64,000 nt of DNA from Escherichia phage SKA64. Position numbers and translations under genes: made by a program. This document shows, piece by piece, positions 2,289 through 16,719 of the stretch. Every line of letters begins with the position of its first letter. Positions within the stretch are counted from its first letter, which is position 1. Under the pieces are notes generated by a model, which saw only the letters and a list, made by a program, of their open reading frames with translations, did no database searches and was not told the DNA's origin. The DNA lies in sequence record OM362897.1. One strand, 5' to 3'.

Positions 2289-2316
2289 ATATTATCAGAC
2301 TACGCGGACTTGTCAA
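2289..2316 (-). promoter_or_regulatory. sigma70-like promoter (minus strand)
   Basis: minus-strand TTGACA-N16-TAATAT. Confidence 0.55.
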
Positions 2317-2317
2317 A

Positions 2318-2428
2318 CTATTTTTTCTTTTTCTTTGCTTCCAACCGTCTAAGGTTACGGCTTGACTTATTGCGCAAGGCGCTTAGATCGTCGTACCCTT
2401 TCCATGCTTGCATATCTTTCGGATTCAT
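2318..2428 (-). CDS. small lysine-rich basic peptide (36 aa, ends KKKKK)
   Basis: AAGGGGG RBS 5 nt before ATG; C-terminal part of track ORF 2318..2590. Confidence 0.35.
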   Translation of the reverse strand: MNPKDMQAWKGYDDLSALRNKSSRNLRRLEAKKKKK

Positions 2429-2438
2429 GTTATCCCCC

Positions 2439-2717
2439 TTAACGATTATAAACATTATGGATGGCTTCAAAGGCAAGATGACCATAAGCCGCCAAATCGG
2501 GATTGATCCAAGCGTTATCCAACATCGTTTCAAGGACTGTGGAATCATCGTATAAAGCATCATAGAAATCTGCACGGATGATCGTTTCAATGTCGTCCGG
2601 TGTTAGTTTGTCGTTCAACTTGCACACTGTTTCAACGTCAACACCAATTTTCCAATTTTGTAAATTAGTGGTTAACATTGTTTTCATTTCTTCGGTTGTT
2701 AATTTAACGATGGTCAT
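2439..2717 (-). CDS. hypothetical protein (92 aa)
   Basis: ORF track; AAGAGAGAAA RBS-like; own promoter-hairpin cassette. Confidence 0.6.
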   Translation of the reverse strand: MTIVKLTTEEMKTMLTTNLQNWKIGVDVETVCKLNDKLTPDDIETIIRADFYDALYDDSTVLETMLDNAWINPDLAAYGHLAFEAIHNVYNR

Positions 2718-2738
2718 GATTTTTTCTCTCTTCTGTTA

Positions 2739-2760
2739 GGCGGGGCGCTTGTCGCCCCTA
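2739..2760 (-). promoter_or_regulatory. PeSL-like 5' leader stem-loop
   Basis: GGGGCG-CTTGT-CGCCCC hairpin. Confidence 0.55.
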
Positions 2761-2768
2761 TGTGATAC

Positions 2769-2796
2769 ATCTTATCAGGTTGATTCAGCTTGTCAA
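2769..2796 (-). promoter_or_regulatory. sigma70-like promoter (minus strand)
   Basis: minus-strand TTGACA-N16-TAAGAT. Confidence 0.55.
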
Positions 2797-2797
2797 A

Positions 2798-2959
2798 CTA
2801 TTTGTTAGCCGGATTATATGCCAGGACCGCGCCGCTTGCTTTCACACTTTCCGCTTCATAGTTGCGCAGATCGTTTTCTGTAAGATTGAGCGCGATCACT
2901 TCCTCGACTTCAACGCCAGCGACAAGGGCGATCTCTTTGATAATGTCTGTTATTTTCAT
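2798..2959 (-). CDS. hypothetical protein (53 aa)
   Basis: track ORF trimmed to ATG at 2957-2959 with AAGGTG RBS. Confidence 0.5.
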   Translation of the reverse strand: MKITDIIKEIALVAGVEVEEVIALNLTENDLRNYEAESVKASGAVLAYNPANK

Positions 2960-2969
2960 GGTGTGCACC

Positions 2970-3089
2970 TTATAAGATGATTGATAAGATAGTGACAACG
3001 AAAGCGATTATACTGATGGCAAATGTCATCTTTTTACCTTCGGATACTGCCGGATTCTCTACCGTGTATTCTACTGTGTACTTGCTCAT
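2970..3089 (-). CDS. small membrane peptide (39 aa, ...FAISIIAFVVTILSIIL)
   Basis: hand-translated; GAGAGGA RBS; stop overlaps RBS of next gene; paralogous to 7448..7552. Confidence 0.45.
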   Translation of the reverse strand: MSKYTVEYTVENPAVSEGKKMTFAISIIAFVVTILSIIL

Positions 3090-3112
3090 CGTGTAATCCT
3101 CTCGTTTGCTTT

Positions 3113-3125
3113 GGGAACTATTCCC
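3113..3125 (-). promoter_or_regulatory. PeSL-like 5' leader stem-loop
   Basis: GGGAA-CTA-TTCCC hairpin; minus-strand TTGCAA-N16-TATATT upstream. Confidence 0.45.
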
Positions 3126-3186
3126 GCCGCCCTATGAATTAAATATACACTATCTCAAAATGATTGCAAGCCTTTTTCTAAATTAT

Positions 3187-3471
3187 TTATGCAGTAAACA
3201 AACCATCATTTACAACGGCGGCGATGATCTCCCGTGCCATTGATTCAGGGAAAGGGGCGCTATAGTCCTGGCTTGTCTCATCGGTATCAGTGATCCAATG
3301 ATAAGCTAACGAGTAAAAGCCTTTACTAACTGTTTTCAGTGAGATGATGATCACTCGGTCAAGCTTATTGGTGAATGTTGCCGTTAATGTGTTACCATCC
3401 TGCGTCATGTTGGACAAGTAAGCGGGATCATTAATCAGGGAAAACATTAGCACGGTGTTAGCTTTACTCAT
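3187..3471 (-). CDS. hypothetical protein (94 aa)
   Basis: track ORF 3187..3501 trimmed to ATG at 3469-3471 (GAGGA RBS); extension overlaps hairpin. Confidence 0.5.
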   Translation of the reverse strand: MSKANTVLMFSLINDPAYLSNMTQDGNTLTATFTNKLDRVIIISLKTVSKGFYSLAYHWITDTDETSQDYSAPFPESMAREIIAAVVNDGLFTA

Positions 3472-3546: not shown

Positions 3547-3749
3547 CCTTTATTTTTCCACGGTGTCAGCTTGTTAATCATTGGTGATAAATAGCGTTTA
3601 CCAACGTAAAACAGCACGCCAACTGATGCAACGGCGGCGATCTCATGCATAGCCGACGGGAAACGGGTATCATAATAAGATCCAATAATAGCAATAGCGG
3701 CAACGGCTGCAACGTCGATAATGATTTTTTCTTGTTTTGCGGTGATCAT
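3543..3749 (-). CDS. small membrane protein (68 aa)
   Basis: track ORF trimmed to ATG at 3747-3749; hydrophobic stretches AAVAAIAIIG and AAVASVGVLFYVG. Confidence 0.5.
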   Translation of the reverse strand: MITAKQEKIIIDVAAVAAIAIIGSYYDTRFPSAMHEIAAVASVGVLFYVGKRYLSPMINKLTPWKNKG

Positions 3750-9268: not shown

Positions 9269-9535
9269 ATGACAAATACTACATTACACCTTATGCACTC
9301 ATTGGGCTGGCAAGGCGGCACGGTGCACCAGGTAGCAAGCGCAACGGGCTTAAAGGTTGAAACCGTTCTCAACCTATCAGATTATAAGGTCGAGGATAGT
9401 TATCAATTACAAAGTTACACGGGCGGTTTTACCTGGGCGCGTGAAGGTGGGAAAGAAAGCAATATACCACATTGGGGAAAAGGTGATATTCATTTTTGGC
9501 TAGGTGTCCTGACCTGGCAAGAAAACAAAAAATAA
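9269..9535 (+). CDS. hypothetical protein (88 aa)
   Basis: ORF track; AAAGGG 8 nt before ATG; isolated plus-strand gene. Confidence 0.45.
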   Translation: MTNTTLHLMHSLGWQGGTVHQVASATGLKVETVLNLSDYKVEDSYQLQSYTGGFTWAREGGKESNIPHWGKGDIHFWLGVLTWQENKK

Positions 9536-9537
9536 TC

Positions 9538-9566
9538 TTGACAAGCCCAGGGATCGGGCTTATACT
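9538..9566 (+). promoter_or_regulatory. consensus sigma70 promoter
   Basis: TTGACA-N17-TATACT; spacer is a GATC-centred palindrome AGCCCAGGGATCGGGCT. Confidence 0.65.
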
Positions 9567-9573
9567 GTTTTAC

Positions 9574-9790
9574 ATACAGAAGAGGAAGCGCCACCCCACG
9601 GCGTAAAGGCGGGGCTAACATACCAGGGGCACTGGTTGGAAGGTTGATCGCCGGTAGGCTGGGCGCTATATATTTGTAAAGAAATGTAAAGATAAAATAA
9701 TCGCTTGCTTTCCTGGGTGGATCTGTTATTCTTATTACATGGCGAGGGGACACGGGAGCGCGAGACAAACACCGCCCCTGCGCGTCATTC
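9574..9790 (+). ncRNA. candidate structured non-coding transcript (GC-rich leader)
   Basis: starts at consensus promoter; GC-rich islands with local hairpins (ACCAG-GGGCA-CTGGT at 9621-9635) in an AT-rich genome; no RBS-led ORF. Confidence 0.3.
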
Positions 9791-9797
9791 TCTAAAT

Positions 9798-9816
9798 GAG
9801 AATGATTATCATTTAC
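9798..9816. promoter_or_regulatory. Fur-box-like palindrome
   Basis: GAGAATGATTATCATTTAC matches 15 of 19 positions of GATAATGATAATCATTATC. Confidence 0.35.
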
Positions 9817-9855
9817 CTTATCAAATAAGAATCAATCTCATTTATAAACCTAAAT

Positions 9856-9874
9856 GCGAATCATTATCATTTGC
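9856..9874. promoter_or_regulatory. Fur-box-like palindrome (second copy)
   Basis: GCGAATCATTATCATTTGC; AAATGC...GCATTT inverted repeat. Confidence 0.3.
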
Positions 9875-9919
9875 ATTTCCATATGAGAACTCTTCTCATT
9901 CCCATCTGCATAAATTTTT

Positions 9920-9980
9920 GTAAACTTTAAATTTTGCTTTTGTACTTTCATTTTTGTAAAAGCAAAAAAACTTTAAATAC
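9920..9980. repeat. AT-rich direct repeat, copy 1
   Basis: about 58 bp, roughly 80% identical to 10058-10118. Confidence 0.55.
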
Positions 9981-10012
9981 TGTGGGCGCGCAAAATTTTT
10001 AAAATTTTCCTT

Positions 10013-10160
10013 GATTTTTGAGTTTTGTTTTGTATCTGACATTTTAAGATAATTTTCCTAAACTTTAAATTTTGGTTTTCAACTTTCACTTTTGTAAATT
10101 CTTAAAAAGTTTAAATAATTTGAGGGATTTTTGAGATAATAGGTAATGGGAATTTGAGAT
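10013..10160. repeat. iteron-like short repeats (GATTTTTGAG x3)
   Basis: GATTTTTGAG at 10013-10022 and 10126-10135, ATTTGAGAT at 10152-10160. Confidence 0.4.
10058..10118. repeat. AT-rich direct repeat, copy 2
   Basis: second copy of AAACTTTAAATTTTG...TTTTGTAAA...TTTAAATA block. Confidence 0.55.
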
Positions 10161-10246
10161 AACCTTTAATCTTATTGGCAGACCTTCAGGAACCCACTCA
10201 GATCGAATCCTAGTGATGCAAACTGAAAAAGACAAGGGTTTGTATA

Positions 10247-10296
10247 GGACAAAATAATAGGCTCTCTACGGTGCTGTAGGAGCCTTATTTCTGTGC
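10247..10296. terminator. bidirectional rho-independent terminator candidate
   Basis: AGGCTCTCTAC...GTAGGAGCCT hairpin (10259-10285) flanked by A-tract and T-tract; sits after minus-strand gene ending at 10341. Confidence 0.5.
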
Positions 10297-10340
10297 TACA
10301 AAGTGACGCCTTTGTTCTAAAAATGAAAAAAGTTAAAATA

Positions 10341-10883
10341 TCACAAATATCGTCTTTGCGGTATTTTGTCTGGGAAAAGTATTTCGATCAGTTTGTTATG
10401 ATATTTACCTAAAAGATTTTGCCCTTTCCAGTTGACCGGATTTAGCACCCCTGGTTCATACATTCCCATTCCAATACCGTAAACCTTATCGTAAGGACTT
10501 GCTTCAACAAACGTTTTGTATTGGTAAAGGTGTAAGTCTGCATACAAATCTGGATTCTGTACATATTTCAAGCATAAACCTCGCATAACAATACGCTCAC
10601 GGTTCTCTTCCCATACATTGTTATCAAAATCCGACACTGCCCTACCCATACGTTTGTAATAAGCCTGGATCTTCTCATCTTTCCGTATCAAACTATGAGT
10701 CAGAATAGCCTGTGCAGTGTTGTGATCATTAAAAAGCAAAGCTTTACGCCACATCATGTATTGTTCGACACAATTAAATGTCTGATTGTAACCTGGTTCG
10801 GTTTCTGTAAAGGGTGCAATATACCAATTACTAAAAACATCTTTATGTGAAAAGAAGAATACATAATCATCAGTTATTCGCAT
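10341..10883 (-). CDS. NADAR-domain protein (YbiA-like, putative ADP-ribose N-glycosidase)
   Basis: motifs FFFSHKDVFSNWY, EQYMMWRKALLF, YDKVYGIGMG resemble NADAR/YbiA family. Confidence 0.65.
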   Translation of the reverse strand: MRITDDYVFFFSHKDVFSNWYIAPFTETEPGYNQTFNCVEQYMMWRKALLFNDHNTAQAILTHSLIRKDEKIQAYYKRMGRAVSDFDNNVWEENRERIVMRGLCLKYVQNPDLYADLHLYQYKTFVEASPYDKVYGIGMGMYEPGVLNPVNWKGQNLLGKYHNKLIEILFPDKIPQRRYL

Positions 10884-11058
10884 TTTTCATACTCTCCAAA
10901 ATTTCACGTTGCCCTTGCTGATAGGCTTTCATCAGAACTACTTTAAGGTTTGTCTCCAAGAGGTCTTCATTGTAATTATACCGCTCCACAACATATGTCA
11001 ATTCATCATAAAGATCAAGAACGGGGTAGAATACAGGGTTATCTGCTAAACGTGCCAT
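10870..11058 (-). CDS. hypothetical protein (62 aa)
   Basis: track ORF trimmed to ATG with AAAGGAGAAA RBS. Confidence 0.5.
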   Translation of the reverse strand: MARLADNPVFYPVLDLYDELTYVVERYNYNEDLLETNLKVVLMKAYQQGQREILESMKNANN

Positions 11059-11071
11059 AGTTTCTCCTTTG

Positions 11072-11437
11072 TTAATCCATCCACCAGTAGCCATAAACTG
11101 CGTCTGCGTCGATGAGTTTGTGTTTGTTGTTCCGCATGTAGTCTAAGATAAGTAGACGTTTATTGTATCTGGAGAGATTATGACCCTCTTTTCCGCCATA
11201 GTCAAAATATTTTGCAAGATCTTTGCACTCAAACAAAATTAGTTCGGGAGTTTCTTCACACTGGTCTGTCTGGTACACTTGACGAATGATCATGTATACA
11301 TCATCGTCTTCCGCTAAATGCTCTACTGGTCCACATCCAGCAGGAACAAATTCATAGTCCCATCTGATCAGATGTTTCTCTACTGCTTCAAAGAAGTCCA
11401 TTCTTTCGTTGCGCATAATTTGAACGTCAACTAACAT
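11072..11437 (-). CDS. hypothetical protein (121 aa)
   Basis: ORF track; CAGGAGGAAAC RBS; start overlaps upstream stop. Confidence 0.6.
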   Translation of the reverse strand: MLVDVQIMRNERMDFFEAVEKHLIRWDYEFVPAGCGPVEHLAEDDDVYMIIRQVYQTDQCEETPELILFECKDLAKYFDYGGKEGHNLSRYNKRLLILDYMRNNKHKLIDADAVYGYWWMD

Positions 11438-12411
11438 GTTTCCTCCTGTAATATTCCACCATAAAGTTTATAAATGTTTTGTATTGATGCCATGCAAGAT
11501 AACTCTACTGTTTCTGTGTAGCCATCTGGCATAGCATATTTGCTCACTGCTTCCGTATCAAGAATACGCTTACAACGACTCTCTGCATCTTTGCACTGCT
11601 TAACAGTAGGGAAGTGCCACACTTGGTGTTGTTTCATAGTTAACACATTATGGCTATTTTGTTCTTTAATACGCCTATCGCTATCTTTAGTAATGCCAAA
11701 TTTCAAGGCACAGAGAACACCTTGTTCATCATAGACATAGTTAATGTAACATTGCTGTTGATTTTTGTTAGCACAATGCGGACAACCTTGACCCAGGTTT
11801 AATAAGCTATTAGCACTCCCTATATGCTCCCCGTGATCCTTACACCCATATTTAAACTTCCCTATTGATGAGGGTTTACTGATCCACTCTATCCAGATAT
11901 ATCCTTTACTTTCTAAACCTTTTCTCACTTTGTAGGTGATTTGTTCGTCTGTATAATGATAATTTTTAGAACAACGGCAAGGGAGACTCCCTCTTTTAAG
12001 GTTATTCCCTTGTGCATAAAACCTGCCATCACAGACGTGAGCTTGCACATATTCATCATGGGAACATTTAGGACATTCAACCATCCAGATAATACTCTTC
12101 CCTTTACGTTTGCCTGTATTGGTGAAGATAGTTCCAGGCTTAAACTTCCCTGTACTTATGAAATTTTGTATGTGCTGATTGTCTGGAATAGCTTTTGCTT
12201 TACTTATTTTATCATACACACAGGTAGGGCAACCAGTACCCCGTTTAAAGTTATAAAAACAGCATGTATTCCATTCATGACCATGACTACAACGTAGGAT
12301 CATCTTCGTATGCGCACCTTTAAACGGCTCTACGATACCTATAATGGTAATCCCCTTAGTTTCCGCTATTGGTTTACATTCTTCCATGTACTGTTCTAAC
12401 GTCTTTGCCAT
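11431..12411 (-). CDS. Zn-ribbon repeat protein with C-terminal GIY-YIG/T5orf172-like domain
   Basis: three CxxC/CxxH pairs; C-terminal YINYVYDEQG...KFGITKDSDRRIKE resembles GIY-YIG-like nuclease folds. Confidence 0.4.
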   Translation of the reverse strand: MAKTLEQYMEECKPIAETKGITIIGIVEPFKGAHTKMILRCSHGHEWNTCCFYNFKRGTGCPTCVYDKISKAKAIPDNQHIQNFISTGKFKPGTIFTNTGKRKGKSIIWMVECPKCSHDEYVQAHVCDGRFYAQGNNLKRGSLPCRCSKNYHYTDEQITYKVRKGLESKGYIWIEWISKPSSIGKFKYGCKDHGEHIGSANSLLNLGQGCPHCANKNQQQCYINYVYDEQGVLCALKFGITKDSDRRIKEQNSHNVLTMKQHQVWHFPTVKQCKDAESRCKRILDTEAVSKYAMPDGYTETVELSCMASIQNIYKLYGGILQEETC

Positions 12412-12440
12412 CTCTAACGATCCTCTCTCTCTATTAAACT

Positions 12441-12475
12441 AAAATCAATATAACAAAACCCGCCGAAGCGGGTTT
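12441..12475 (-). terminator. rho-independent terminator candidate (minus strand)
   Basis: AAACCCGC-CGAA-GCGGGTTT hairpin followed on minus strand by TGTTATATTGATTTT. Confidence 0.55.
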
Positions 12476-12491
12476 AATAAATCTCAACTTA

Positions 12492-13631
12492 TTAGAACAC
12501 GCTACCTAATGTGGTGGAACGTTGTGTTACAGGCTCCAGCACCACTCGCAGAGTGTTTCCTGGTGTAGTGCTCATCACCAGAATCTTACCACCTTCAATC
12601 AGATCACAAGTTAGACCATCAGCAGTTGCACATAGATCAATATGTGGATCACCATCTTCATCCAGGATAACATAACTGTTGGTTTCCATTGCTTCCACTT
12701 CATCATCTTTCAAACTTTGTAGATAGATGTTCAGGGAACAAGCACCCGACAAAAACTTAGTAGGGGTGAAGTCGTGCCAGTTATTGATCCAATTCACCTT
12801 CAAGGTTTTGCCATTAGCTACGATAGAAGCCACATTCCATTTAGCATCGTTCCCTAAAGAAATACCCATCATTTCAAGACATTCTTTAAAAGTCATTTTT
12901 GGATAGAAATTCAATTCTTCTACAATGCCTTGAATAACATCGAAAGACAACTCTGTGCTAACATCCCATAAACGTTGGAAGTTATCTACGTGCTTTTTAT
13001 TTACCAAGTTCTTATCCAAGTAATCTAACATAGTTTCACTAGACAGTTTATCGTAATTGAAACTGTAGTAGATACGACTAGGACGGTTTACAAAATATTC
13101 CGAGATATAGCCACTATTTTTAGTGAGGATGTAAAGTTTATTTCCACTTCCTGTTCCATCCAACAAGGTCAACAGTGCTTCCTGATCTTCTTTCTTAGCG
13201 TACACTTTATCAAACTCGTCAAATAAAACAACAGCACGATCTGTAATTTTACTCATAAATTCTAAGAATCCAGCGTCTGTGTAAGGCTGTGTCACCAAAA
13301 TGGTTGGAATACCTAAACCTTCTGTGGACATTAGGGACATGCTAATCAGTTTAGCTAACATCGTCTTACCACTGCCCTTTGTCCCTGTCAGTAACACCCC
13401 AGTATTTTTACCTTCTTTACTACGACGAGCAAATGTTTTAATAACATGTGCGGCGCGGTCTTTAGTTTCCCCATAAAGAGTGTTCGGAAGAGAGAAACTT
13501 TCGCCACGCACTAAAGAGTAGTTACCGTGCGGATCGCAGTTGACAACCCAAACTCCAGCAGGAAGTTTATTAGCTTCAACACCATATTCCTTATTTACAA
13601 CAGCCACATCTCCAAAAATAGTGTATTTCAT
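12492..13631 (-). CDS. AAA+ family ATPase
   Basis: Walker A GTKGSGKT, Walker B VVLFDEFDK; 379 aa. Confidence 0.65.
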   Translation of the reverse strand: MKYTIFGDVAVVNKEYGVEANKLPAGVWVVNCDPHGNYSLVRGESFSLPNTLYGETKDRAAHVIKTFARRSKEGKNTGVLLTGTKGSGKTMLAKLISMSLMSTEGLGIPTILVTQPYTDAGFLEFMSKITDRAVVLFDEFDKVYAKKEDQEALLTLLDGTGSGNKLYILTKNSGYISEYFVNRPSRIYYSFNYDKLSSETMLDYLDKNLVNKKHVDNFQRLWDVSTELSFDVIQGIVEELNFYPKMTFKECLEMMGISLGNDAKWNVASIVANGKTLKVNWINNWHDFTPTKFLSGACSLNIYLQSLKDDEVEAMETNSYVILDEDGDPHIDLCATADGLTCDLIEGGKILVMSTTPGNTLRVVLEPVTQRSTTLGSVF

Positions 13632-15807: not shown

Positions 15808-16299
15808 TTACCACATAATCTCGCGCAACTCTTTTTCTTCTTTAAAATTACGTAAGTTTTCCAGTGCACGATTTAGGTCTTCTTCCGTCTCTGCTTTCTG
15901 GACTTTTTCCATCATTTTCGCAACAATATTTTTCTTAACTTGCAAATCTGGAACAGGTATACGTTTTTCCATTTCATAAGCTTCTCGTTTATGACGTTCC
16001 TCCATCTCTGCTTTTTCTTTCACCCAATCCGCCTCGTCCATTGCACCTTTGCAGACACAAGTGTAACCTTTAATAGTATAATCACCATGTTCAATACCAG
16101 GTTGAAGAGCTAAGGCTTCATTACCACAATACGCGCACAACGGACGACCTGGCATTTTCAAAGTTTTGGTAGCCTTAGCGCCACATTGACTATCCCAGCT
16201 TGTTTTATAACTGGAACCGTTGTCTCCGTGAGAACGACCAACCAAGAAGTTACGGAAGAAACCCATAGCACGTTCGTCAATGTAATCAGGGTAAGCCAT
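15808..16299 (-). CDS. Zn-finger protein (163 aa)
   Basis: ORF track; CAYCGN...CVCKG cysteine pairs; AAAGGAGAA RBS. Confidence 0.6.
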   Translation of the reverse strand: MAYPDYIDERAMGFFRNFLVGRSHGDNGSSYKTSWDSQCGAKATKTLKMPGRPLCAYCGNEALALQPGIEHGDYTIKGYTCVCKGAMDEADWVKEKAEMEERHKREAYEMEKRIPVPDLQVKKNIVAKMMEKVQKAETEEDLNRALENLRNFKEEKELREIMW

Positions 16300-16311
16300 T
16301 ATATTCTCCTT

Positions 16312-16605
16312 TCACATTAAGACACGTTTTGTGTCGATGGGTGCATTATCAAACATGTTAAGAACATTGTCAAGCAGTTTTACTAATTCATTTGTAATTT
16401 GTTCTTTTGAACGGGAGGAAGTGAGCACTTTGCTTTCACCAACGATATGCATAACTTTTATAGGAGCGTCTAAAATGATGTTGTGTTGACGATCCTCTTC
16501 AAAAGAAGCCAACCATTTCTCATTGTTACCGTGCAAGGCTACAATCACACCAAAACCGTTAATTGTTTCAGAAATATTCTTAGTTGCTAAAGTAATGTTC
16601 ATCAT
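16312..16605 (-). CDS. hypothetical protein (97 aa), first gene of minus-strand operon
   Basis: ORF track; AGAGAGG RBS; divergent promoter region upstream. Confidence 0.6.
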   Translation of the reverse strand: MMNITLATKNISETINGFGVIVALHGNNEKWLASFEEDRQHNIILDAPIKVMHIVGESKVLTSSRSKEQITNELVKLLDNVLNMFDNAPIDTKRVLM

Positions 16606-16629
16606 CTACCTCTCTTGTTAATGTTCATA

Positions 16630-16657
16630 CATGATACCTGAAAATAATTTCAGATCA
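16630..16657 (-). promoter_or_regulatory. sigma70-like promoter (minus strand, divergent pair)
   Basis: minus-strand TTGATC-N16-TATCAT. Confidence 0.45.
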
Positions 16658-16660
16658 AGT

Positions 16661-16688
16661 GTTGACATGCTTTTTAGTCCTGTTAAGA
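16661..16688 (+). promoter_or_regulatory. sigma70-like promoter (plus strand, divergent pair)
   Basis: TTGACA-N16-TAAGAT, 31 nt before ATG at 16720. Confidence 0.6.
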
Positions 16689-16719
16689 TCAACTCATACA
16701 AAACGAGAGGAGAAAACAA

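Follow-up and report, generated by a model that had tools for sequence, protein, structure and literature searches.

Introduction

A family of homing-endonuclease-type phage proteins with repeated CapR modules, typically encoded beside essential genes, has been described (PMC10448857, PMC8096241); its ICP1 members carry the CapR modules, often repeated, at the N-terminus and a T5orf172 domain at the C-terminus. For the T5orf172 domain, nuclease activity has been demonstrated with Odn (gp88) of ICP1, which cuts the PLE origin (PMC8263062). Odn serves in defence against satellites and binds DNA through a RepA_N domain, a copy taken from the satellite that it targets. The CapR zinc-finger domain, with its CxxC...CxC motif, is also found in PLE CapR, the capsid repressor of a Vibrio cholerae satellite, which stands alone without a nuclease domain. 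The T4 Seg proteins, known for 'intronless homing' (PMC2988022), are encoded between conserved genes and combine a modular binding part with a GIY-YIG-fold part that, as in I-TevI, is N-terminal.

We have analysed a locus in a 64-kb stretch of DNA, here called the window, that comprises an AAA+ ATPase gene and, beyond a terminator-like hairpin, a gene whose predicted product has three CapR modules and a C-terminal nuclease domain (the nuclease gene). The phage carrying the locus is a phAPEC8-like (Phapecoctavirus) coliphage. With the enzymes of ICP1 and other phages (PMC8096241, PMC10448857) the nuclease gene shares the arrangement of domains, a conserved-gene neighbour, a number of modules that varies between alleles and a position at an exchange boundary, but its hosts are Stephanstirmvirinae coliphages, and its occurrence is not sporadic but close to fixation in two genera. 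The locus goes without mention in the text and supplements of PMC10448857. Like the T4 Seg genes it is intergenic and intronless, shows presence/absence polymorphism among relatives and has an exchanged flanking patch; unlike Seg, it encodes a divergent T5orf172 branch with DNA binding predicted for a CapR zinc-finger array, and unlike both Seg and I-TevI its nuclease domain is C-terminal. The protein follows Odn in the order of the T5orf172 motifs (Y-I/V-N, K-x-G, R, E, E-T-F), and PLE CapR in its zinc-finger domain, of which it has three copies joined to a conserved nuclease domain.

Results

Layout of the locus

The two open reading frames proposed in an earlier note on this DNA are real, and both lie on the minus strand. 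The locus is made up of the following features.

12492 to 13631, minus strand: AAA+ ATPase gene, 379 aa, equivalent to phAPEC8 gp014 and phi92 gp221 (PF00004, phrog_2376)
12446 to 12475, minus strand: intrinsic-terminator-like hairpin (8-bp stem, UUCG loop) and T-rich tail, immediately 3′ of the ATPase stop codon
11447 to 12445, minus strand: putative inserted cassette (nuclease ORF preceded by spacer and ribosome-binding site), limits approximate, placed by comparison with the 989-nt indel that separates L022 from phiWec188 and with the empty sites
11431 to 12411, minus strand: predicted homing-endonuclease-type gene with three CapR modules and a T5orf172 domain, 326 aa, equivalent to phAPEC8 gp013 and phi92 gp222 (PF21817, phrog_681)
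11072 to 11437, minus strand: downstream 121-aa gene, homolog of phAPEC8 gp012 (phrog_24465), right flank of the insertion site

Neither the ATPase nor the nuclease gene has a paralog within the window. The hairpin, which the earlier note had described as terminator-like, reads AAACCCGC-TTCG-GCGGGTTT followed by TGTTATATTG (positions 12475 to 12456, minus strand). An identical stem is found in phAPEC8, EF1-1, Mt1B1_P17 and the phi92 group. ECO340P2, ASO2A, Schickermooser and the empty-site phage phiWec188 have an alternative hairpin; the same or an equivalent hairpin is kept in all relatives examined. We group the hairpin with the ATPase gene rather than with the insert, and judge it to predate the insertion. 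From the terminator to the ATG of the nuclease gene there is no convincing sigma-70 promoter. Rfam searches around the nuclease gene found neither a group I intron nor any other RNA family (sub-threshold matches fell on the hairpin only), and the gene is therefore free-standing. At the far end, the ATG of the gp012 homolog overlaps the nuclease stop codon (ACATGTTAG); this stop/start overlap is found in all alleles.

Filled and empty insertion sites

The putative cassette begins just past the terminator tail and stops short of GGAGGAAA, the ribosome-binding site of the next gene; the nuclease gene is flanked by the ATPase terminator on one side and by the gp012 ribosome-binding site on the other. 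Comparison of L022 (filled) with phiWec188 (empty), whose flanks are 94.5% and 92.6% identical, gives a clean 989-nt indel, and the insert in L022 is a 331-aa CapR/T5orf172 gene. The empty site of phiWec188 consists of the ATPase stop codon, the hairpin, CATATAC, GGAGGAAAATT and ATG, the gp012 homolog being present without the nuclease gene. Empty sites of equivalent arrangement occur in Klebsiella phage phi1_175008 and in L026. The presence/absence comparison across related phages that the earlier note had suggested has thus found both filled and empty sites, and its proposal of a homing-endonuclease-like insertion is backed by this polymorphism, by allele divergence between near-identical flanks and by membership of the CapR + T5orf172 family.

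The nuclease gene is nevertheless near-fixed: the flanks are contiguous in one of 70 phAPEC8-type records (EP57) and in none of 56 Justusliebigvirus records. EP57 was considered as an ancestral empty site and rejected. Here the ATPase and gp012 genes are fused in frame into a 501-aa CDS (junction GGTAG|AGGAGG) and the 130.7-kb genome has many fragmented ORFs, for which reasons we ascribe the contiguous flanks to a deletion or a faulty assembly.

Divergent alleles between near-identical flanks

In eight Phapecoctavirus genomes the ATPase and gp012 proteins are 99–100% identical; the nuclease is 37–75% identical, with lengths of 326 to 486 aa, its relatives carrying 3–5 CapR stretches. Nucleotide identity to relatives falls from 96–100% to 45–85% exactly at the ATPase stop codon (∼ 12500) and recovers at ∼ 11535. 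Synonymous divergence (dS) is 0.6–2.5 in the nuclease gene versus 0.03–0.16 in the flanking genes. The nuclease dN/dS is about 0.25, with 0.23–0.35 in all modules and 0.15–0.31 in the T5orf172 domain. Over 24 kb the closest genome, that of tuntematon, shows 99.1% identity, which drops to 79.8% in the nuclease gene. ASO2A differs by seven synonymous changes in the ATPase gene, yet its nuclease is 37% identical; for Mt1B1_P17 the figures are 29 synonymous differences and 71%. With these two phages the nuclease allele tree conflicts with the tree of the flanks. We regard the alleles as old, functional and swapped by recombination. All those inspected are intact except in ECGD1 and KKP 3954, where the nuclease ORF is split; we rejected decay of alleles as an explanation, and since the ATPase gene of KKP 3954 is split too, the frameshifts in that record may be sequencing errors.

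The position of exchange is marked in phiWec188, which has 72.7% nucleotide identity to the window in the ATPase gene, 95.1% in gp012 and ∼ 73% in the rest of the genome. There is a sharp exchange boundary, the 95.1%-identical gp012 beginning right at the insertion point, and the gp012 patch is an indirect indication of co-conversion of flanks. Greater conservation of the flanks was tried as a signal of co-conversion, but at 96–100% against a 24-kb background of 95.5–99.1% the flanks are not above the genome average, and so they give no co-conversion signal of their own in the phAPEC8 group. An apparent domain swap in MRostami-2023b (L005), with a 99%-identical C-terminal 110 aa and a seemingly unrelated N-terminus, was rejected because the 5′ 900 nt of the gene are a run of N in a record labelled UNVERIFIED.

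The nuclease protein

The predicted protein (AF2 model, pLDDT 91.4) has the following parts, all on the minus strand.

12214 to 12402, minus strand: zinc-finger module 1, aa 4–66 (helix, beta hairpin, C41, H43/H45, C61xxC64)
11968 to 12183, minus strand: zinc-finger module 2, aa 77–148 (canonical CapR CxxC...CxC: C113, C116, C145, C147)
11767 to 11952, minus strand: zinc-finger module 3, aa 154–215 (C190, H193/H196, C210xxC213)
11452 to 11763, minus strand: T5orf172/GIY-YIG-fold nuclease domain, aa 217–320 (invariant Y222, K237-F-G-I240, R247, E277, D296-G-x-T-E300-T)
11671 to 11673, minus strand: R247, invariant, nuclease domain
11581 to 11583, minus strand: E277, invariant, nuclease domain
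11512 to 11514, minus strand: E300 (TETF motif), invariant, nuclease domain

What had been read as three zinc-ribbon repeats are three CapR-type modules: Pfam CapR (PF21817) matches in three stretches (E 6.7e-27, 93.9 bits, cutoff 24.2), the best of which, aa 84–148, is module 2, whose motif is that of PMC8096241. The predicted metal ligands C41, C61, C64, C113, C116, C145 and C147 are invariant in 27 homologs, and C190, C210 and C213 are kept in every homolog that has module 3. The array contains no nucleotide-level repeats. Over its whole length the protein matches phrog_681 'endonuclease' (E 2.6e-66), and it is homologous to gp165 of ICP1, a 'putative homing endonuclease' (E 1e-18).

The GIY-YIG-like C-terminus of the earlier note stands as regards the fold and the phrog_681 match, with Pfam scores falling just under the cutoffs (T5orf172, PF10544, 17.2 versus 20; MUG113, PF13455, 18.8 versus 22.3). 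The same-locus alleles of phi92, VivaForever and PaulScherrer score 20.2–20.7 for T5orf172 against the cutoff of 20. Y222, the KFGI motif, R247, E277 and E300 are invariant across the 27 homologs. BLASTP found no significant alignment between the nuclease and Odn. In hhalign E277 aligns with E180 of Odn, in a low-probability alignment that is consistent with the motifs; E300 was considered as the Odn E180 equivalent and rejected, the profile alignment placing E277 there. By these matches we class the gene with the phage homing endonucleases of the CapR + T5orf172 (GIY-YIG superfamily) type, a family already described.

The ATPase gene and its product

The 379-aa ATPase with Walker A and B motifs is confirmed by matches to Pfam AAA (PF00004; 29.9 bits, cutoff 21.2) and to phrog_2376 'ATPase' (E 4e-111). 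Walker A (G83-T-K-G-S-G-K89-T90) and Walker B (D138-E139) are invariant in 41 homologs. The AF2 model (pLDDT 85.6) comprises a beta domain, an AAA core and a separate C-terminal domain, in agreement with the distinct C-terminal domain noted earlier.

13497 to 13631, minus strand: N-terminal small beta domain, aa 1–45 (AF2 secondary structure)
12867 to 13466, minus strand: AAA+ core, aa 56–255 (AF2 model), containing the Walker, sensor-1 and RPxR motifs
13362 to 13385, minus strand: Walker A, inside the AAA+ core
13215 to 13220, minus strand: Walker B, D138/E139, inside the AAA+ core
13116 to 13118, minus strand: sensor-1, N172, inside the AAA+ core
13074 to 13085, minus strand: 'RPxR' motif, R183-P-S-R186, inside the AAA+ core
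12513 to 12857, minus strand: C-terminal beta-rich domain, aa 259–373 (AF2 model)

The protein has the Walker A and B motifs, the sensor-1 and the second region of homology with Arg fingers that characterize classical AAA+ proteins (PF00004), as well as a score above the cutoff, and it belongs to the classical protein-remodelling AAA clade, not to a DNA-acting clade. No pore-loop motif of the aromatic-hydrophobic-Gly kind is evident. The N- and C-terminal domains have no Pfam match and no PDB sequence match; the C-terminal domain is weakly conserved across the family, as judged from the homolog consensus, and the only matches returned by a viral fold library were unnamed phage ATPases. Many Phapecoctavirus genomes encode this protein with 100% identity; across these genomes dS is 0.03–0.13 and dN is 0 or nearly 0 (maximum 0.002). 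The ATPase gene is an independent conserved phage gene that lies outside the mobile cassette and is subject to very strong purifying selection.

Each gene occurs without the other

The two genes are adjacent and in the same orientation across Phapecoctavirus and Justusliebigvirus. In IMG/VR a CapR/T5orf172 ORF lies within 4 kb of the ATPase gene at four of 47 loci, all four from Stephanstirmvirinae, and at none of the 42 loci with a 33–49%-identical ATPase. Four further ATPase contigs (L011–L015) all lack a CapR/T5orf172 gene immediately downstream. One of them, L015, has a CapR gene on the opposite strand ∼ 1.5 kb upstream of the ATPase gene, which is missing at the same place in its relative L011, and the closest nuclease homolog in the phage of L015 is ∼ 30 kb from the ATPase gene. 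The nuclease family is also found at unrelated loci without the ATPase, and co-occurrence of the two genes does not hold across lineages. PADLOC gave no match for the nuclease and only weak P-loop-level matches for the ATPase (best mad8, E 4e-5); NCBIfam gave nothing meaningful for either. From this distribution we conclude that the genes are real but do not appear to form a working pair.

Discussion

We consider it probable (roughly 0.7) that the nuclease gene is a free-standing homing-endonuclease-type CapR + T5orf172 cassette that lies after a conserved ATPase gene. We infer nuclease activity, a target and homing along the following lines. The cassette sits in a spacer of ∼ 45 nt between the ATPase gene with its terminator and the gp012 homolog. 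The three CapR modules would bind a specific DNA sequence like beads on a string, as in I-TevI, and the C-terminal GIY-YIG-fold T5orf172 domain would cut nearby by means of a centre formed by Arg247 and Glu277. In a mixed infection the enzyme would cut the genomes of related phages lacking the allele in or near the ATPase–gp012 region, and recombinational repair from the carrier would introduce a copy of the cassette, alone or along with flanking markers. Over many such rounds, old, divergent alleles with three, four or five modules could spread among near-identical genomes. The nuclease gene would then adjoin the ATPase gene only because homing endonucleases settle beside conserved genes.

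Near-fixation exceeds what would be expected of a purely selfish element and fits a benefit to the phage. This bears on a different reading, in which the nuclease is domesticated and cuts competing related phages (marker exclusion) or a satellite or other parasite, with the finger array tracking its targets. The gene is intact as well as near-fixed in two genera, every module is under purifying selection (dN/dS 0.23–0.35), old alleles of 3–5 modules persist side by side and the nuclease stop codon overlaps the next start codon in all of them; Odn-like RepA_N-T5orf172 genes in Mt1B1_P17, Inny and Muut provide precedents in the same subfamily (PMC10448857). However, phiWec188 and phi1_175008 live without the gene, as does EP57 if its assembly can be trusted, and the DNA-binding part is of the CapR type and no copy of a satellite replication protein. 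We think this reading unlikely, and it overlaps with homing instead of excluding it. A DNA-binding regulator that does not cleave, similar to PLE CapR or to I-TevI as an autorepressor and tuning, for instance, the gp012–NADAR genes, appears highly improbable to us. CapR domains can repress (PMC8096241), and the gene follows closely on a terminator, with translational linkage to the next genes, but the T5orf172 domain that PLE CapR lacks has been retained here with invariant residues in 27 homologs and a dN/dS of 0.15–0.31, and the genes that would be regulated are unchanged in phages without the nuclease gene.

ATPase–nuclease pairs are common in conflict systems, and it had been proposed that the two genes are a nuclease-ATPase DNA-processing unit. 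Such a pair, perhaps defence-like, in which the AAA+ protein would load, activate or partner the nuclease, could account for the adjacency and orientation conserved in both genera. We now find it scarcely credible, its distribution having already largely refuted it: the ATPase occurs without the nuclease in phiWec188, phi1_175008, L026 and the 42 distant IMG/VR loci, no such gene follows it immediately in the four further contigs, and the nuclease family has other loci of its own. The terminator separating the genes is already there at the empty site and would be older than the insertion, the two proteins evolve at opposite rates (ATPase dN 0, nuclease amino-acid divergence 25–63%), the ATPase is of the remodelling clade and not of a DNA-acting one, and no significant match to a defence system was returned by PADLOC. 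A bolder reading is a balanced 'allele warfare', in which a long-lived set of CapR arrays of three, four or five modules, with different DNA specificities, would be used between coliphages of this subfamily in mixed infections; if the warfare were real, a modular recognition code of CapR fingers could be read from the alleles that occur in nature. Separately, the invariant ATPase could serve large virulent phages as a core remodeller that has so far gone unrecognised. We hold these ideas to be doubtful.

The main value of the analysis is in annotation, with the nuclease gene becoming a CapR/T5orf172 homing-endonuclease-type gene and the ATPase gene being listed apart from it, as an AAA+ gene under tight constraint. 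In addition, the locus provides a clear case from nature of an empty and a filled site in ∼ 93–94% identical genomes, and of ancient 3–5-module alleles that move between near-identical genomes with a sharp boundary at the insertion. It offers a convenient E. coli phage system for T5orf172 homing and for the specificity of CapR fingers.

As for the ATPase itself, it is probably a hexameric protein remodeller. The closest known kind are the classical-clade AAA+ proteins p97/Cdc48, NSF-D2, BCS1, Rix7 and Yta7. In contrast to AAA+ proteins of the p97/Cdc48 type, the phage ATPase has a single AAA module flanked by orphan N- and C-terminal beta domains, and it comes from a phage-only family (phrog_2376). 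The ATPase family is widespread in large phages, among them Herelleviridae, crAss-like and jumbo phages.

Architecture of the ATPase–nuclease locus

An earlier note on this DNA had described two ORFs, for a 379-aa ATPase and a second protein, with a terminator-like hairpin between them. All three are present, in the following arrangement:

12492–13631, minus strand: AAA+ ATPase, 379 aa
12475–12456: hairpin AAACCCGC-TTCG-GCGGGTTT with a T-rich tail, between the ATPase and nuclease genes
11431–12411, minus strand: putative CapR/T5orf172 nuclease, 326 aa
11072–11437: gp012 homologue, 121 aa, phrog_24465
10870–11094, minus strand: 74-aa ORF, phrog_22330
10341–10883, minus strand: NADAR-domain protein, 180 aa (PF08719, E 1.8e-35)

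The 3.8-kb region around the ATPase and nuclease genes is 90–94% identical in nucleotide sequence to ∼ 70 phAPEC8-like coliphages (Phapecoctavirus, Stephanstirmvirinae), and a separate 24-kb stretch of the window 95.5–99.1%. The ATPase is the counterpart of phAPEC8 gp014 and phi92 gp221, the nuclease that of phAPEC8 gp013 (annotated 'endonuclease') and phi92 gp222. Records labelled Campylobacter, Acinetobacter, Pseudomonas or pigeon-swab 'Dompiswa phage' (for example MG065650.1 'Campylobacter phage B15' and OP562383.1 'Acinetobacter phage ABPW7') are 92–94% identical to E. coli Phapecoctavirus here, and their host labels look doubtful.

The ATPase scores above the Pfam AAA threshold (29.9 versus 21.2 bits), and its match to phrog_2376 spans the whole protein. 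The Walker A (G83-T90) and Walker B (D138/E139) motifs, already noticed earlier, are invariant in an alignment of 41 homologues, as are the sensor-1 Asn (N172) and the motif R183-P-S-R186, which we take to be the 'RPGR' form of the second region of homology, as in classical AAA proteins. The AF2 model (pLDDT 85.6) consists of a small N-terminal β-domain, an AAA core and a separate β-rich C-terminal domain, the last in agreement with the distinct domain suggested before; a search for sequence matches to the two end domains found none. The fold places the protein with protein remodellers, not with DNA-acting AAA+ clades. The family is widespread (jumbo phages, Herelleviridae, crAss-like phages and ∼ 90-kb Proteus and Aeromonas phages). 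A second paralogue (43–44% identity) is encoded elsewhere in the genomes of two IMG/VR contigs, L033 (Justusliebigvirus-type, 148.7 kb) and L040 (Klebsiella-type, 149.5 kb); none was seen within the 64-kb window. The ATPase is an uncharacterised, strongly constrained phage AAA+ protein, with no hint here of a new kind of system.

The three zinc-ribbon repeats noted in the second protein are CapR domains (PF21817, three matches, E 6.7e-27), and the Cys/His ligands expected of such domains are in place. CapR domains are zinc-finger DNA-binding modules of a phage homing endonuclease family whose nuclease domain, T5orf172, is a branch of the GIY-YIG superfamily; the modules are repeated, their number is altered by recombination, and the genes adjoin essential genes and mark the boundaries of exchanged segments (PMC8096241; PMC10448857). 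We count the GIY-YIG-like C-terminus as real, with borderline Pfam scores for T5orf172 and MUG113. ICP1 gp165, labelled 'putative homing endonuclease', is a homologue of the protein (E 1e-18), and Y222, K237-F-G-I240, R247, E277 and D296-G-x-T-E300-T of its nuclease domain are invariant in 27 homologues. In a weak but motif-consistent profile alignment, E277 lies opposite E180 of ICP1 Odn, a T5orf172 protein with demonstrated DNA cutting that is inactivated by the E180A mutation (PMC8263062). Published work already covers the family, its modular repeats and how it behaves in genomes; it gives no specific description of the ATPase/nuclease locus.

Empty and filled sites

Presence and absence across related phages, proposed earlier as a check, could be read directly. 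In phiWec188, classified as Phapecoctavirus, the ATPase (80% identical) is followed by the terminator and by CATATAC-GGAGGAAAATT-ATG of the gp012 homologue; the nuclease gene is absent. The IMG/VR contig L022 matches phiWec188 at 94.5% identity on one side and 92.6% on the other, and carries 989 additional nt exactly at the ATPase–gp012 point. These encode a 331-aa CapR/T5orf172 protein whose final codons overlap the gp012 start. Two more examples of the empty arrangement are contig L026 and a same-subfamily Klebsiella phage. Judged from these alignments, the nuclease gene is an insertion, as the suggestion of a homing-endonuclease-like element had anticipated. The empty sites keep the hairpin, which is accordingly part of the ATPase gene and older than the insertion; the cassette lies between this hairpin and the ribosome-binding site that serves the following gene.

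A search with the two flanks joined found them contiguous in one of 70 phAPEC8-group records and in none of 56 from Justusliebigvirus. The single case, EP57 (OR544956.1; 2435–3940 of L017), is a doubtful fusion in which ATPase and gp012 are joined in frame as one 501-aa CDS and terminator and nuclease gene are both missing; it may be an assembly artefact, since related genomes are ∼ 20 kb longer and this one contains numerous tiny ORFs. Overall, the nuclease gene is polymorphic in one lineage and missing from another, and in two it is close to fixation.

History of the nuclease alleles

A comparison of eight Phapecoctavirus genomes gives 99–100% identity for the ATPase and gp012 proteins and 37–75% for the nuclease proteins, whose lengths are 326, 332, 335, 394, 402 or 486 aa and which have 3, 4 or 5 CapR modules. 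In the ATPase gene, synonymous differences number up to 30 and non-synonymous ones no more than 3 (zero of the latter in most pairs; dS 0.03–0.13). The ATPase stop codon marks the exact point where nucleotide identity falls from 96–100% to 45–85%; identity recovers at ∼ 11535. For the nuclease gene, dS is 0.6–2.5 and dN/dS 0.23–0.35 in each of the four modules, so that the alleles must be old and subject to purifying selection. Recombination has carried them from genome to genome; they are not evolving fast in place. Allele relationships are at odds with those of the flanks: in ASO2A the ATPase gene is the closest of all, yet the nuclease has five modules and 37% identity. Between phiWec188 and the window, the ATPase gene is 72.7% identical and gp012, whose start lies at the insertion point, 95.1%. 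This contrast is a sharp exchange boundary, of a kind that has been reported for CapR/T5orf172-type nuclease genes (PMC10448857) and that break repair would be expected to leave (PMC2988022).

Proposed mechanism and alternatives

The earlier note had also considered a nuclease–ATPase DNA-processing unit. We find no evidence for the ATPase as a partner, and much against it, and regard such a unit as highly improbable: none of 42 IMG/VR loci (ATPases 33–49% identical) has a CapR/T5orf172 ORF within 4 kb, none of four further contigs has one immediately downstream of the ATPase, and PADLOC returned no defence-system match. One of the four, L015, has an opposite-strand CapR gene ∼ 1.5 kb upstream of the ATPase (2310–3455, 381 aa), flanked by a DUF7325 gene and a gene for a 267-aa protein; L015 is from an unrelated phage lineage with genomes of ∼ 150 kb. 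Its close relative L011 lacks this gene at the same place (3566–3586), so this is another presence/absence case and another mobile copy of the CapR family; in the phage of L015, ∼ 30 kb separate the ATPase from the closest homologue of the window nuclease. Homing endonuclease genes are known to favour positions next to conserved genes, which best accounts for the adjacency.

The domain architecture, fold, conserved catalytic-type residues, insertion polymorphism, allele swapping and independence from the ATPase are established here. In the mechanism that we propose, the zinc-finger array would bind at a specific site, close to which the T5orf172 domain would cut. During mixed infection, genomes without the allele would be cut and then repaired from the carrier, which would spread the cassette and sometimes flanking markers alone, such as gp012. 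No convincing promoter was found in the spacer before the nuclease gene, so expression is probably by read-through of the ATPase terminator. The main rival is that the nuclease benefits the phage, for instance by competitor exclusion or an anti-satellite role; we think this unlikely, with some room left for it by alleles that are near-fixed and intact. A purely regulatory role of the protein is much less probable still.

Neighbouring genes

gp012 is 99–100% identical in protein throughout Phapecoctavirus and absent from the phi92 group; its 95% nucleotide identity in phiWec188, where surrounding genes are at ∼ 65–85%, suggests a recently exchanged patch. The 74-aa ORF forms a second small island of variability, with 64–75% nucleotide identity to most relatives against 98–100% for its neighbours, and 95–99% in EF1-1 and MRostami-2023b. 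The phi92 group lacks it, and there the nuclease gene abuts the NADAR gene.

The NADAR protein also matches TIGR02464 (riboflavin-intermediate N-glycosidase domain, E 2.4e-32) and, weakly and far below cutoff, the NADAR anti-phage model NF053876. Several GenBank records name it 'GTP cyclohydrolase II', which looks like annotation carry-over from fusion proteins. The ∼ 0.8 kb downstream of its gene (∼ 9535–10340) contains no convincing ORF, merely short mixed-frame ORFs, and several promoter-like and hairpin matches; the equivalent stretch is unannotated in phAPEC8 and ASO2A, terminator excepted. At ∼ 16 kb of the window the GC skew changes sign and gene orientation changes from minus to plus. 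Nearby promoter-like sites face in both directions (16373–16345, minus; 16662–16689, plus), and ∼ 16000–16700 is probably a divergent early promoter region.
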